DNA of 8,987 nt, from the IMG/VR virus record IMGVR_UViG_2734482784_000003. One strand, given 5' to 3'. Shown here in pieces: positions 1,345-8,501 of the stretch; positions within the stretch are counted from its first letter, which is position 1, and each line of letters opens with the position of its first letter. Under the pieces are notes generated by a model. That model was not told the origin of the DNA. It made no database searches and saw nothing but the letters and a program-made list of their open reading frames with translations. The position numbers and the translations under genes were made by a program. The stretch is from a virus (taxonomy: Duplodnaviria > Heunggongvirae > Uroviricota > Caudoviricetes).

Positions 1345-1480
1345 TTGACATGGTGCCTATATAGGGACTAAATTCCCTCAAAACTGGAACCTATATAGGT
1401 TCCATTGATTTGAGAATAAACCAGCGTCTAAACGGTTTTGAGTGGTTTAGAAAGGGCTGGATCCTATGAGGGTACCATAT
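1345..1480. promoter_or_regulatory. Lysis/lysogeny switch region between divergent C and cox; candidate rightward early promoter (-35 TTGACA 1345-1350, -10 TAAATT 1369-1374)
   Basis: 136-bp intergenic region between the C start (1344) and the cox start (1481). A perfect TTGACA hexamer abuts the C start codon, with an 18-nt spacer to TAAATT. P2-type switches are known to have closely apposed Pe/Pc promoters. I could not pin down a convincing leftward Pc promoter by eye. Confidence 0.45.
1356..1403. promoter_or_regulatory. Two copies of the palindrome CCTATATAGG (1356-1365 and 1390-1399); the second is embedded in a perfect 18-bp palindrome GGAACCTATATAGGTTCC (1386-1403). Candidate operator sites
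   Basis: Read directly from the sequence; centres are 34 bp apart. They sit over and just downstream of the candidate early promoter, between the repressor and cox genes, where C and/or Cox binding would be expected. Confidence 0.45.
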
Positions 1481-3237: not shown

Positions 3238-3509
3238 GTATTCGTATTGAAATTGGCGAACGTTATGTCGTTACCAGTGACAGCTTTCAGTTTATTCTCC
3301 ACGAGAAAAAGAGAGCGGAAAGCGGTAAAAACGCCGGTCAGGAATGGCTGGCGGTGGTTGGTTATTATCCGAAATTAAGCCAGCTCGTTTCCGGCCTGAT
3401 GCATCACGATATTCTGACCGGAAGCGCAAAGTCTTTTGCTGATTTAAACGCGCAGGTTGAGCAACTCAGCAAGCGTTGTTCAGAGGCTTTTGGCTCATAT
3501 GGCCGTTAA
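3234..3509 (+). CDS. Hypothetical early-operon protein (P2 orf83 position)
   Basis: 91-aa ORF. Its ATG overlaps the previous stop (ATGA at 3234-3237); GGAG upstream. Its 3' end overlaps the start of A by 11 nt. Confidence 0.7.
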   Translation: MSIRIEIGERYVVTSDSFQFILHEKKRAESGKNAGQEWLAVVGYYPKLSQLVSGLMHHDILTGSAKSFADLNAQVEQLSKRCSEAFGSYGR

Positions 3510-5778
3510 AGCCTCCGGGCGTTTTGTCCCTCCGTCAGCATTTTCCGCAGGCACCGGTAAGACGTTTGCCGGTGCTTATGCATGGAACGCGCCACGTGAG
3601 GCTGTCGGGCGCGAAAGACCCCTTACACGTGACGAGATGCGTCAGGTGCAAGGTGTTTTATCCACGATTAACCGCCTGCCTTACTTTTTGCGCTCGCTGT
3701 TTACTTCACGCTATGACTACATCCGGCGCAATAAAAGCCCGGTGCACGGGTTTTATTTCCTCATATCCACTTTTCAGCGTCGTTTATGGCCGCGCATTGA
3801 GCGTGTGAATCAGCGCCATGAAATGAACACCGAAGCGTCGATGCTGTTTCTGGCTGAGCGTGACCACTATGCGCGTCTGCCGGGGATGAATGACAAGGAG
3901 CTGAAAAAGTTTGCCGCCCGTATCTCATCGCAGCTTTTCATGATGTATGAGGAACTCTGCGATGCCTGGGTGGATGCGCATGGCGAAAAAGAATCGCTGT
4001 TTACGGATGAGGCGCAGGCGCATCTGTATGGTCATGTTGCTGGCGCTGCACGTGCTTTCAATATTTCCCCGCTTTACTGGAAAAAATACCGTAAAGGACA
4101 GATGACCACGAGGCAGGCATATTCTGCCATTGCCCGTCTGTTTAACGATGAGTGGTGGACTCATCAGCTTAAAGGCCAGCGTATGCGCTGGCATGAAGCG
4201 TTACTGATAGCTGTCGGGGAGGTCAATAAAGACCGTTCTCCTTATGCCAGTAAACACGCCATTCGTGATGTGCGTGCGCGCCGCCAGGCAAATCTGGAAT
4301 TTCTTAAATCGTGTGACCTTGAAAACAGGGAAACCGGCGAGCGCATCGACCTTATCAGTAAGGTGATGGGCAGTATTTCTAATCCTGAAATTCGCCGGAT
4401 GGAGCTGATGAACACCATTGACGGTATTGAGCGTTACGCCGCCGCAGAGGGTGATGTGGGGATGTTTATCACGCTGACCGCGCCGTCAAAGTATCACCCG
4501 ACACGTCAGGTCGGAAAAGGCGAAAGTAAAACCGTCCAGCTTAATCACGGCTGGAATGATGAGGCATTTAATCCAAAGGATGCGCAGCGTTATCTCTGCC
4601 GTATCTGGAGCCTGATGCGCACGGCATTCAAGGATAATGATTTACAGGCCTACGGTTTGCGTGTCGTTGAGCCACACCACGACGGAACGCCGCACTGGCA
4701 TATGATGCTTTTTTGTAATCCACGCCAGCGTAACCAGATTATTGAAATCATGCGTCGCTATGCGCTCAAAGAGGATGGCGACGAAAGAGGAGCCGCGCGA
4801 AACCGTTTTCAGGCAAAACACCTTAACCGGGGCGGTGCTGCGGGGTATATCGCGAAATACATCTCAAAAAACATCGATGGCTATGCACTGGATGGTCAGC
4901 TCGATAACGATACCGGCAGACCGCTGAAAGACACTGCTGCGGCTGTTACCGCATGGGCGTCAACGTGGCGCATCCCACAATTTAAAACGGTTGGTCTGCC
5001 GACAATGGGGGCTTACCGTGAACTACGCAAATTGCCTCGCGGCGTCAGCATTGCTGATGAGTTTGACGAGCGCGTCGAGGCTGCACGCGCCGCCGCAGAC
5101 AGTGGTGATTTTGCGTTGTATATCAGCGCGCAGGGTGGGGCAAATGTCCCGCGCGATTGTCAGACTGTCAGGGTCGCCCGTAGTCCGTCGGATGAAGTTA
5201 ACGAGTACGAGGAAGAAGTCGAGAGAGTGGTCGGCATTTACGCGCCGCATCTCGGCGCGCGTCATATTCATATCACCAGAACGACGGACTGGCGCATTGT
5301 GCCGAAAGTTCCGGTCGTGGAGCCTTTGACTTTAAAAAGCGGCATCGCCGCGCCTCGGAGTCCTGTCAATAACTGTGGAAAGCTCACCGGTGGTGATACT
5401 TCGTTACCGGCTCCCACACCTTCTGAGCACGCCGCAGCAGTGCTAAATCTGGTTGATGACGGTGTTATCGAATGGAATGACCCGGAGGTCGTGAGGGCGC
5501 TCAGGGGTGCATTAAAACACGGTCGGAGAACGCCAAGTCGTCAGCAAAGAAACGGAAGCCCGTTAAAACCACATGAAATTGCACCATCGGCCAGACTGAC
5601 CCGGTCTGAACGATTGCAAATCACCCGTATCCGTGTTGACCTTGCTCAAAACGGTATCAGGCCGCAGCGATGGGAGCTTGAGGCGTTAGTACGCGGTGCG
5701 ATCGTCAATTACAATGAAAAGCAATTTTCATATCCTAGTGTAGATGAGTGGAGTGGGTTTTCTGGTTATTCAGAGTAA
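3499..5778 (+). CDS. A: Replication initiation protein A (rolling-circle HUH endonuclease, P2 gpA-like)
   Basis: The track ORF 3457..5778 starts at a TTG; the first ATG at 3499 gives MAVKASGRFVPPSAF…, which matches the P2 gpA N-terminus as I recall it (about 760 aa). HUH motif HWH at 4693-4701 (…PHHDGTPHWHMMLF…) and a YxxKYxxK catalytic-tyrosine motif at 4846-4869 (YIAKYISK) support a rolling-circle initiator. Confidence 0.9.
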   Translation: MAVKASGRFVPPSAFSAGTGKTFAGAYAWNAPREAVGRERPLTRDEMRQVQGVLSTINRLPYFLRSLFTSRYDYIRRNKSPVHGFYFLISTFQRRLWPRIERVNQRHEMNTEASMLFLAERDHYARLPGMNDKELKKFAARISSQLFMMYEELCDAWVDAHGEKESLFTDEAQAHLYGHVAGAARAFNISPLYWKKYRKGQMTTRQAYSAIARLFNDEWWTHQLKGQRMRWHEALLIAVGEVNKDRSPYASKHAIRDVRARRQANLEFLKSCDLENRETGERIDLISKVMGSISNPEIRRMELMNTIDGIERYAAAEGDVGMFITLTAPSKYHPTRQVGKGESKTVQLNHGWNDEAFNPKDAQRYLCRIWSLMRTAFKDNDLQAYGLRVVEPHHDGTPHWHMMLFCNPRQRNQIIEIMRRYALKEDGDERGAARNRFQAKHLNRGGAAGYIAKYISKNIDGYALDGQLDNDTGRPLKDTAAAVTAWASTWRIPQFKTVGLPTMGAYRELRKLPRGVSIADEFDERVEAARAAADSGDFALYISAQGGANVPRDCQTVRVARSPSDEVNEYEEEVERVVGIYAPHLGARHIHITRTTDWRIVPKVPVVEPLTLKSGIAAPRSPVNNCGKLTGGDTSLPAPTPSEHAAAVLNLVDDGVIEWNDPEVVRALRGALKHGRRTPSRQQRNGSPLKPHEIAPSARLTRSERLQITRIRVDLAQNGIRPQRWELEALVRGAIVNYNEKQFSYPSVDEWSGFSGYSE

Positions 5779-5984
5779 TAAACATAATGTTTTAGATTGG
5801 TTGCATAATGGTAAGGTTGCTGTTTATCTGTATATGTTAATATGATTACGCTACGTACAAATAATCGACATTTCTTTTTTTCTATATATTAATATTGATG
5901 ATTTTACTGGTGGTACAATAAGTCTATGTTGAAATTCGAGAATTGTATTATTAACAATAAAAACTGGTTCTTTTTATTATACAA

Positions 5985-6012
5985 GGACCACCTCCTTAGG
6001 AGGTGGTCTTTT
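5985..6012 (+). terminator. Strong hairpin terminator between convergent A and the cargo gene
   Basis: 10-bp perfect GC-rich stem GACCACCTCC (5986-5995) / GGAGGTGGTC (5999-6008) with a 3-nt loop, followed by TTTTACTGTTT on the plus strand. It lies 6 nt from the stop codon (6018-6020) of the minus-strand cargo gene. The hairpin may act bidirectionally, but the U-tract is only clear on the plus strand. Confidence 0.6.
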
Positions 6013-6017
6013 ACTGT

Positions 6018-8501
6018 TTAACGAGGGTTTCGCGTATAGGTTTCAACTATGTCTGATGCACGTAATTTACATGTGATCAATTGTTCTCTTATAAATATCT
6101 CATCGTGTCGTTTATCACTTGTACAAATGGCCGTGATAAAACTGAGGATAGATGCTTTAAAACGTTCAAGATCATTTATGGTCATTATTCGAGACCCTTC
6201 GTTTAGTGTTGCGGCATATTCAGGCATGTTAGAGTGATGTATCATTATAGGTGTGGCGGTAGCAGTTTGATCATACATGTTTCTGAACCATGCACCCGAC
6301 CCATTTAACTGATTGCAGTCATGCTTACTTATTCTTTCTGCGGTTGCTCCATTTTTGCATTCAATTACTAGATAATTGTTTTCTCCCATTGCCCATAAAT
6401 TGTCAGGTCCTTTACCTGTATCATTTTCTGGCCGTTGGCTACGAAAACCGATCAAATATGCAACTTTTTCGATAGCATCTTCGAAGGGATTCGATGTGCC
6501 CTCGGAGAAAATAAGGTTTTCTATTATTGAATTAGTATGCACAACGACTTGATTCGCCGATTCAAAATTACTTCTGAGATAGGAGCTACATTCCCTGGCC
6601 TGTTCAAGTGCCGCACCATTAAGTCTATTATATGTTACGCCGATTAGTGGTTTTAATACCCGATAGTTATCGTTTGATGCAGACTGAAGCAATATCTGAG
6701 CTTCAGATTTGTCATATAAGTTTACATATTCCGCAGCATGTTCTTTTAGATAACCCTTATAAACTTTGTCAGCTGTACTACTATCATTTTTTAGAGTTAA
6801 AGCGGCTTGTTGAAACATATTTCGTGATGCGAAGTCATATGCCAATCTTTTGTTTATAGTATGCTGGTCAATCTGCTTATTTTCCAATGTTAAGCCAGTC
6901 AATATACCTTTGCTTTTTGAGACCCAGTCAGAATTGCGTAACAGACAATAATCAAGAGCACCTTTGATTGAATCAATAGTTGTATCCGGCAGTATCGATA
7001 CCAATTGCTGTGAAAGTTGAATTTGTGCTTTCGTTGCTGGAGAAAACCTTTCTAAGGAGGAGCCAAGGAAAACAGCGCCATTTAATGCTTTGCCAAGTAA
7101 GATCACTCCGCAGAAGTCGTCGCTTGATCTCACTCCTCGCCCCATTCCTTGTTCAATTTTCTGGATAATTTCATCTTTGGTTTTTTCGCTTCCAAGCAAT
7201 AAGCTTTGTGAGACTTTATCTATTAGTCTACGAACGTCAGGAAGTCCATCTATTACTAATAGACGACATGCGGTATTTGGTAAATCAATACCATCATATC
7301 TATTAACTAGGACTACTAAGCCAACATGTTGTGTCCTTAATTCTTGTACACCTTGATAAATTGTATTTTTATCTAATATTCTGTCTGCAACATCTTGCCA
7401 AAATCTAGTTCTGTAATCGGATGGTACAATTACAACAACATTATGTTTGGAGGATATCTCCTTGCACATAGCTTTGATATCTACATCAGAAAGACTAGGG
7501 TTTATAACCTGAGGCATTAGTATCATTCTATCACCAATATCACCAATTGTTTTTGGTGTTATCGGATTAGAGAGTGATTCATCCGTTATTCCGAAGTGGC
7601 TCGCTAGAATGGATTCATCGACAAGAGTAGCTGTCATGAATATTTTTCTTCTTGCGTTTGATAGGCTTGGGATCATTTGGATTGGTATGCAATGAGGTGA
7701 TATCTCTATTTTGGAAGCACTTACAACGCATTTCGATAATATTAGATTGTCTTTTATTAATGGCCATTTGAAACTCAAGTCATCATGGTCTTTATTTTCT
7801 AACAAGATTGTCATTATATCATTTATGCTTTCTTGCCATTTCCAAAATGGAACTCTCACATAAGCATTTCTATCGCCGGATTTTATCTCTAGTGTTTTTG
7901 CACCAGCTTGTGTCATTAGTGAATTTTCAAAAATTCTGAATAATTTATCATAGGCAGGGTTATTTTTTTGAATGCTAATGGAGAATTGTTCTTCAATTGA
8001 AGAAAGGCAAGCGTGAGCATCGTCAATTATTATAGAACCTATTGGTATTTTTTGTCCATCATCTCCAACGCCAAATGCAGAACGTCCATTAACCACTTTG
8101 AATATATTTGTAACTAAAATTTCTTTACCTGCAATAAATTTGGGGGACCTCTCATCTTGAGTTACAGGTATACCAAGTTGATTAGCCTCCAAAACCACTT
8201 GCTCAACTAGATAGTTGTCAGGAACAACATATACAGCGGGACCTTCTCCTTCATTTATACAGCTTTTAAGAATGATTAACCCAACTGAAGTTTTACCGCT
8301 TCCGGTATTCATTTTTATTACATTGGTTGGGCTTCTCCTTGCTTCATACCATTTTTCCCAGACCTCTGATTGCACATCTCGAGGGTATTGAAATTTGGTG
8401 TCTTTGCTCGGTAGAGCTGTAAATATATCTCGCGGTGGAATCGCTGTGTCGCTATTTACACTGGGCGAAAGCTTGGTTAAATCAAGGAAAAAACCAGACA
8501 T
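6018..8501 (-). CDS. Large SF2 helicase with C-terminal PD-(D/E)xK-like nuclease motif; candidate single-gene anti-phage defence protein in the P2 A-to-cos cargo hotspot
   Basis: 827-aa uninterrupted minus-strand ORF. AGAGGA Shine-Dalgarno 6 nt upstream of the ATG (8499-8501), with an in-frame stop two codons further upstream fixing the start. Motifs read directly: Walker A GSGKT (aa 67-71, nt 8289-8303), motif II IIIDDAH (DDAH at nt 8013-8024), motif III MTAT (nt about 7626-7634), motif VI QGMGRGVR (nt about 7128-7151), and C-terminal GPD…(13 aa)…IECK (D700, E714, K716; nt 6354-6407). The gene is markedly AT-rich: hand counts on a few 60-nt lines give roughly 28-38% G+C, against about 60% in one line of A. 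Confidence 0.85.
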   Translation of the reverse strand: MSGFFLDLTKLSPSVNSDTAIPPRDIFTALPSKDTKFQYPRDVQSEVWEKWYEARRSPTNVIKMNTGSGKTSVGLIILKSCINEGEGPAVYVVPDNYLVEQVVLEANQLGIPVTQDERSPKFIAGKEILVTNIFKVVNGRSAFGVGDDGQKIPIGSIIIDDAHACLSSIEEQFSISIQKNNPAYDKLFRIFENSLMTQAGAKTLEIKSGDRNAYVRVPFWKWQESINDIMTILLENKDHDDLSFKWPLIKDNLILSKCVVSASKIEISPHCIPIQMIPSLSNARRKIFMTATLVDESILASHFGITDESLSNPITPKTIGDIGDRMILMPQVINPSLSDVDIKAMCKEISSKHNVVVIVPSDYRTRFWQDVADRILDKNTIYQGVQELRTQHVGLVVLVNRYDGIDLPNTACRLLVIDGLPDVRRLIDKVSQSLLLGSEKTKDEIIQKIEQGMGRGVRSSDDFCGVILLGKALNGAVFLGSSLERFSPATKAQIQLSQQLVSILPDTTIDSIKGALDYCLLRNSDWVSKSKGILTGLTLENKQIDQHTINKRLAYDFASRNMFQQAALTLKNDSSTADKVYKGYLKEHAAEYVNLYDKSEAQILLQSASNDNYRVLKPLIGVTYNRLNGAALEQARECSSYLRSNFESANQVVVHTNSIIENLIFSEGTSNPFEDAIEKVAYLIGFRSQRPENDTGKGPDNLWAMGENNYLVIECKNGATAERISKHDCNQLNGSGAWFRNMYDQTATATPIMIHHSNMPEYAATLNEGSRIMTINDLERFKASILSFITAICTSDKRHDEIFIREQLITCKLRASDIVETYTRNPR

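Follow-up and report, generated by a model that had tools for sequence, protein, structure and literature searches.

Two copies of the 10-mer CCTATATAGG lie between the immunity repressor gene C and cox of a P2-like prophage, and we conclude, with a probability of roughly 80%, that they are the operators O1 and O2 of the C repressor of the prophage type that includes phages L-413C, R18C and HQ103. What is new here is modest: we place the operators by homology with WPhi, derive a dyad consensus of 16 bp, interpret R18C and L-413C as mutants in both operators, and find that O2 overlaps a conserved hairpin. The literature that we searched contained no occurrence of CCTATATAGG in a phage context and no experimental characterisation of these operators.

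Results

The window and its switch region

The window, by which we mean the whole stretch of 8,987 bp that was analysed, was identified from its ORFs, Pfam domains and matches to relatives as the early region of a P2-like (Peduovirus) prophage. Its gene order, int-C / cox-orf78-B...A, is that of the P2-type C/Cox switch, in which C and cox are divergent genes and the promoters Pe and Pc stand face to face in a spacer of about 110 to 140 bp. Downstream of cox are orf78, B and several small ORFs, followed by the replication gene A at 3457-5778. As shown in Table 1, the start of cox is ambiguous: the longest ORF is the one annotated in L-413C, and the shorter form is annotated in R18C, HQ103, FSL SP-004 and WPhi, with the ATG at 1481 aligning with the WPhi start.

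The P2 'tin/old' cargo hotspot, which follows gene A, holds an ORF of 827 aa (6018-8501, minus strand) with ResIII/DEAD helicase domains and an end-to-end match to the PADLOC candidate defence family PDC-S28 (E = 0). The relative NC_041848 carries cytolethal distending toxin genes in the same hotspot. A 14-bp inverted repeat, AAGGACCACCTCCT / AGGAGGTGGTCTTT, separates gene A from the 3′ end of the PDC-S28 gene (5983-6011) and is likely a terminator at the cargo boundary.

Table 1. Features of the window, with promoters, operators and cox-boxes as predicted
Feature	Position	Strand	Basis and remarks
Integrase	1-1011	minus	
C immunity repressor, 97 aa, helix-turn-helix	1051-1344	minus	ORF; Pfam HTH_3
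Pe -35, TTGACA	1345-1350	plus	Promoter scan; directly adjacent to the C start codon; in line with the Pe -35 annotations of WPhi and P2
Putative O1, core CCTATATAGG	1356-1365		In dyad GTGCCTATATAGGGAC, 1353-1368; in the Pe spacer; same position as WPhi O1
Pe -10, TAAATT	1369-1374	plus	Promoter scan; aligns with TATATT of WPhi and most family members
Hairpin-forming inverted repeat enclosing O2	1377-1414	plus	RNA fold; predicted 5′ end of the Pe transcript, also within the Pc transcript
Putative O2, core CCTATATAGG	1390-1399		In dyad GAACCTATATAGGTTC, 1387-1402; same position as WPhi O2
Candidate cox-boxes GGTTTTGAG, GGTTTAGAA	1434-1452		Direct repeats exactly 10 bp apart; within the Pc region, 1430-1456
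cox	1466 (95 aa) or ATG 1481 (90 aa) to 1753	plus	Pfam Phage_Cox, E 1e-23

Two symmetric repeats at the predicted Pe promoter

An earlier note on this DNA had described CCTATATAGG as occurring twice between C and cox, and both copies are indeed there, 34 bp apart from start to start. With one mismatch allowed, the window has no further match; dinucleotide shuffles gave a mean of 0.09 matches, and none of 200 shuffles had two. The same note reported a perfect 18-bp palindrome around the second copy. GGAACCTATATAGGTTCC is perfect at 1386-1403, but this is not its full length, as one further base pairs on each side to give the perfect 20-mer TGGAACCTATATAGGTTCCA (1385-1404), and an imperfect extension reaches 1372-1417. 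The first copy sits inside a 16-bp near-palindrome with 7/8 pairs and the second inside a 16-bp dyad with 8/8 pairs. Shuffled sequence reaches a dyad score of 7 or more in 2% of cases and a score of 8/8 in 0 of 2,000. Beyond the core, the two sites share a G at -2 and a C at +13, which yields the 16-bp dyad consensus GNNCCTATATAGGNNC. In a complete relative of 31.2 kb, this consensus was found at the two switch sites only, with up to two mismatches allowed, and no additional repressor sites for looping of the kind used by 186 were found across its 31 kb. A scan also flagged 1385-1404, together with the following TTGATTTGAG, as an intrinsic terminator; we rejected this reading because the T run is broken and the site would lie at about +5 of the early operon, and also because the same hairpin occurs family-wide without a T run.

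The predicted Pe agrees with the consensus at 10 of 12 bases and can be aligned with Pe as annotated in WPhi and P2; its -35 element is conserved in 52 switch variants. Pc was not located by a consensus scan of the switch region. The two copies of CCTATATAGG flank the Pe -10, as the half-sites of P2-type switches flank the -10 or the -35. These half-sites are directly repeated in each characterised case: 8 bp long and 22 bp apart around the Pe -10 in P2, 8 bp and 26 bp apart around the -35 in P2 Hy dis, and 10 bp and 34 bp apart around the -10 in WPhi (PMC1904268). For WPhi, the half-site TATTGGTGAC was defined experimentally (PMC1904268, PMC1904263), and when the two regions are aligned both copies of CCTATATAGG fall on the two TATTGGTGAC half-sites, with the same length and spacing. 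The proposal of operator-like sites in the immunity switch is supported. Since length, spacing and position are those of WPhi, the architecture is the known one and the copies still form a direct repeat, which goes against the earlier suggestion of a different binding geometry.

What sets these sites apart is their internal symmetry. That P2 C acts on direct, non-palindromic repeats, as the note had stated, is documented (PMC2995052), and such repeats are the rule in the characterised classes; here each copy is self-complementary. Because the unit CCTATATAGG is its own reverse complement, 'direct' and 'inverted' are indistinguishable for this pair. The likeness to WPhi is otherwise close, as both have a C protein of 97 aa, a TTGACA -35 that abuts the C start and an O2 inside a hairpin-forming inverted repeat. 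However, TATTGGTGAC is unrelated to CCTATATAGG, the WPhi half-sites are not palindromic, and the WPhi O2 zone has no dyad that scores above 4/8. P2 shares with the window a homologous repressor and the architecture of C, Pe/Pc and cox, but its 8-bp half-sites, GTTTAGAT, are non-palindromic (PMC2995052).

The window belongs to the immunity type of L-413C

The window C is 43% identical to P2 C and 56% identical to WPhi C, and its sole relative in the PDB is P2 C (2xcj/2l49, E 2e-21). It is 100% identical to the C proteins of L-413C, R18C, FSL SP-004 and E. coli EC12. The segment from C to cox is 99-100% identical to those of Yersinia phage L-413C, R18C, HQ103, FSL SP-004, P24B2 and others, and within the L-413C / R18C / HQ103 group the spacer is 98.5-100% identical. 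Phages are placed in one immunity group when their C proteins are at least 95% identical and their spacers the same (PMC3448106). On this measure the type is distinct from both the P2 group (class I) and the WPhi group (class III), whose spacer operators are unrelated to those of the window, and is the same as that of L-413C.

An immunity specificity unlike that of P2, which the earlier note had anticipated, is consistent with these values and with the absence of both GTTTAGAT and TATTGGTGAC from the Pe region; heteroimmunity to P2 is well supported. The note had also named an identical sequence in P2 itself as the observation that would count against it. Canonical P2 (NC_001895) lacks the sequence: the C/operator part of the window finds no match there, and its own spacer holds GTTTAGAT twice, 22 bp apart. 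A match to a record labelled 'Escherichia phage P2' (KC618326/NC_041848) was not counted as a match to P2, as it is actually a different species, Peduovirus magyaro. WPhi immunity was likewise rejected, given 56% C identity and no TATTGGTGAC.

Of 5,426 complete E. coli genomes, about 420 (about 8%) have the switch of the L-413C/R18C/HQ103 type, and the type is probably among the commonest P2-like immunity types in this species. Karlsson et al. reportedly defined the P2-like immunity classes in 2006, and the type of the window is probably among those catalogued then. It is common and has been sequenced many times already; its unusual feature is that each site is itself symmetric.

Two lytic relatives carry changes in both putative operators

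Variation at the sites was followed in IMG/VR with a pattern in which the flanks were fixed and both operators were left as N. Among the 36 contigs retrieved, both 10-mers are invariant, with the exception of one contig that is R18C itself. In the E. coli prophages, 1384-1405 is exact in at least 417 of 420 and 1349-1372 in at least 408 of 420. Polymorphisms in the prophages sampled fall at 1352, 1355, 1373/1374, 1404 and 1426, all either at N positions of the dyad or beyond it. The change at 1373-1374 is common and turns the Pe -10 from TAAATT into TAAATC, TAAACC or TAAACT, which should weaken the early promoter. Of 408 E. coli matches to 1345-1376, 66 have a mismatch, located at 1373-1374 in those sampled.

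R18C has been described as virulent (PMC6823313). Within 721 bp it has just two private changes, one in O1 (1364 G>T) and one in O2 (1390 C>T), and its C is identical to that of the window. By our own arithmetic, the chance of one change falling in each 10-mer is about 4e-4. L-413C, which arose from L-413 as a clear-plaque mutant (PMC3448106), carries C>A changes at 1356 in O1 and at 1402 in O2, the latter at the C of the dyad consensus beside the core, again with an intact and identical C; further changes in this phage are 1373 T>C and Cox P56L. All four operator changes in these lytic isolates are on consensus positions, and they affect both arms (positions 1, 9, 1 and 13). In P2, WPhi and P2 Hy dis in vivo, repression is kept when a single half-site is mutated and relieved when both are (PMC1904268), so two changes per lytic isolate are the expected 'vir' signature. 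A third lytic relative, HQ103, has operators identical to those of the window and a 7-bp deletion in C. When C from an E. coli EC12 prophage was supplied in trans from a plasmid, HQ103 plaques were blocked (PMC10321612). The C of EC12 in RefSeq is 100% identical to that of the window; we assume from the strain name and the gene length of 294 bp that this is the strain used in that work.

A hairpin of the family encloses O2

Around O2, the inverted repeat at 1377-1414 folds at -16.4 kcal/mol on the plus strand (z -5.3) and at -17.9 kcal/mol on the minus strand (z about -5). A hairpin occupies the same place in WPhi, P37 and P2. We collected 52 distinct switch variants from IMG/VR with the C protein as the query, and 40 of them have an equivalent hairpin just downstream of the Pe -10 that encloses the O2 position (z < -2). 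The hairpin loci are L050-L129 (first 76 nt after the C start codon, in the orientation of the window), L001 (1792-1821), L007 (637-670) and L003 (1933-1958). The stems differ among classes, for example AAAAGGT/ACCTTTT, CTCAACTGGTTC/GAACCAGTTGAG and TTTCATTGGGCC/GGCTCAATGAAA, and since the hairpin is kept while its sequence changes, this covariation points to a conserved structure, present in the transcripts of Pe and Pc alike. The mapped O2 of WPhi is in the loop of the equivalent hairpin (our fold and PMC1904268), and in the type of the window the inner stem is made up of the palindromic operator. It is thus best to see the perfect palindrome of 20 bp as an operator on which a family-wide hairpin is superimposed. 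One guess is that the hairpin may act as a stem-loop at the 5′ end of the early mRNA. We considered whether O2 might pair with the distant O1 in the C mRNA leader and rejected this, since the local O2 hairpin is preferred in the fold.

The O2 changes in the lytic isolates also weaken this structure, from -16.4 to -13.8 kcal/mol in R18C and to -10.1 kcal/mol in L-413C. It follows that only the O1 changes argue cleanly for an operator at the DNA level. The O1 change of L-413C touches the only AGG upstream of the C start codon, and the changes in both phages may have effects at the RNA level as well.

A model for repression of Pe

We propose that O1 fills the spacer between the -35 and -10 elements of Pe and that O2 covers approximately the first 25 bases after its predicted transcription start. 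Each site would probably be occupied by one C dimer; we infer both the contact of C with these bases and this stoichiometry. A 16-bp dyad with a flexible TATATA centre is the target expected of a symmetric dimer, with one dimer per site as in C.Esp1396I. With C at O1 and O2 together, Pe would be shut off, and with it cox, B, A and the lytic programme. Lysogeny would thereby be kept, and the lysogen would be immune to phages of the same type, though not to P2 or WPhi.

Alternative readings of the sites

Given that each site fits the dyad GNNCCTATATAGGNNC, a symmetric C dimer could read both arms, with the pair forming what may be called a direct repeat of palindromes. It is also possible, at somewhat less than even odds, that C reads the sites as direct repeats only, with one helix-turn-helix binding specifically (for example to TGGNNCCTATAT) and the other non-specifically, in which case the right arm would be incidental or would serve something else. 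This is the model proposed for P2 C (PMC2995052), and the direct-repeat match here does run on leftwards, where TGGtgCCTATATAGG and TGGaaCCTATATAGG agree at 13 of 16 positions. Moreover, in sister classes only the left part, ATGGAACCTATATGT, is retained, forming a direct repeat with 15 of 16 matches and no dyad symmetry. However, the lytic isolates have changes in the right arm of O1 (R18C, 1364, position 9) and of O2 (L-413C, 1402, position 13), the dyad scores of both sites are above chance, and a second class, L110, has dyad-symmetric sites too.

That the palindromy of O2 and its extension to 1377-1414 mainly encodes an RNA stem-loop, acting on the stability or translation of the early mRNA, the C mRNA or both, with an operator role secondary or absent, is unlikely in our estimation. 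The stability of the stem-loop on both strands, its recurrence with covarying stems and its weakening in R18C and L-413C all speak for a function of the RNA. O1, however, precedes the predicted transcription start of Pe and lacks an extended hairpin, but it contains the same 10-mer and both lytic isolates have a change in it, and the mapped O2 of WPhi within an equivalent hairpin indicates that operator and hairpin can coexist (PMC1904268). The stem-loop is plausible as an added function and unlikely as the sole one. Least probable of all, to the point that we give it very little weight, is that the palindromes are sites for Cox or for a host protein such as H-NS or IHF and not operators of C. 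H-NS silences Pe and binds HQ103 fragments with Pe and Pc in EMSA (PMC10321612), and the sites have an AT-rich core, TATATA, but a protein of low sequence specificity leaves unexplained both the two exact 10-mers and their loss in lytic variants with an intact C. As for Cox, which the earlier note had considered as a binder, P2 Cox filaments spread towards Pe at high concentration, but what the protein recognises is a series of at least six cox-boxes that lie over Pc with a phasing of 10-11 bp (PMC3936717). Phased repeats in the window are found only at the candidate cox-boxes, in a segment (1430-1456) that aligns with the WPhi sequence upstream of cox. The Cox of the window is 82% identical to that of WPhi, where the palindromes have no counterpart, so the sites co-vary with C and not with Cox, and Cox is an unlikely reader.

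Half-site symmetry across the C family

According to the literature, all known classes use direct repeats (PMC2995052). In the switches that we surveyed, direct repeats are found in the type of the window, L071, L110 and WPhi. Inverted repeats, and not direct ones, flank the Pe -10 in L084/L007 (the P37 type), L117, L077, L111, L079, L114, L128 and L097, with 13-14 of 16 positions matching (reached by 0-1 of 300 shuffles) and no significant direct repeat; the inverted pair of the P37 type is GTCCTGACTTAATGAC / GTCATTAATCCAGAAC. L110 has two dyad-symmetric sites in the first 72 nt after the C start codon, GTTCCCTATCTGGAAC and GTTCCTTATCTGGAAC, which have the form GTTCC-N6-GGAAC and are 32 bp apart. 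With inverted repeats in other surveyed classes, the non-palindromic direct repeat may not be what defines the P2-type switch family. The nearest sister classes, whose C proteins are 85% and 72% identical to that of the window, have the clearly non-palindromic direct repeats ATGGAACCTATATGT, which suggests that the reading of both arms is not a conserved property.

P2 C is a symmetric dimer that resembles palindrome binders, and its action on asymmetric repeats is an acknowledged puzzle; C.Esp1396I, a structural neighbour, binds a direct repeat of palindromes with one dimer on each repeat (PMC2995052). C.Esp1396I and lambdoid repressors such as P22 c2 and 434 are symmetric helix-turn-helix dimers on dyads of about 14-18 bp, and the binding in the window would be of this kind. 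However, they have no detectable sequence relationship with the window C beyond the helix-turn-helix fold, and the C.Esp1396I sites are 15 bp apart, compared with 34 bp here. Phage 186, another relative of P2, has as its immunity repressor the CI protein, which binds inverted repeats (PMC1904268), but domain and structure matches show that the window C is not of the 186 CI type.

Discussion

We speculate, tentatively and with more doubt than confidence, that each half-site in the window is a 16-bp dyad with both arms read by one symmetric C dimer, and that the orientation of half-sites is free across the family: direct in P2, WPhi and L071, inverted in the P37-like switches, L077, L079 and L114, and self-symmetric here and in L110. 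If this is true, P2 C on its asymmetric direct repeats would represent a degenerate version of ordinary palindrome binding, and the statement that the C family recognises direct repeats would be overturned. In P2, repression requires both half-sites (PMC1904268).

The immunity type discussed here includes L-413C, a plague-diagnostic phage, as well as R18C and HQ103, which have been studied for therapy or ecology. With the operators known, it would become possible to predict which P2-like phages a given lysogen excludes. R18C and L-413C have an intact repressor gene, and point changes in the two operators offer a simple explanation of why they are nonetheless lytic; the engineering of obligately lytic derivatives would call for changes at four to six bases. 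No co-structure of a repressor with its DNA is known to us for the P2 C family, and with the asymmetric sites of P2 such a structure is difficult to interpret. For a first one, a natural C repressor whose sites are fully symmetric would be the most suitable choice.
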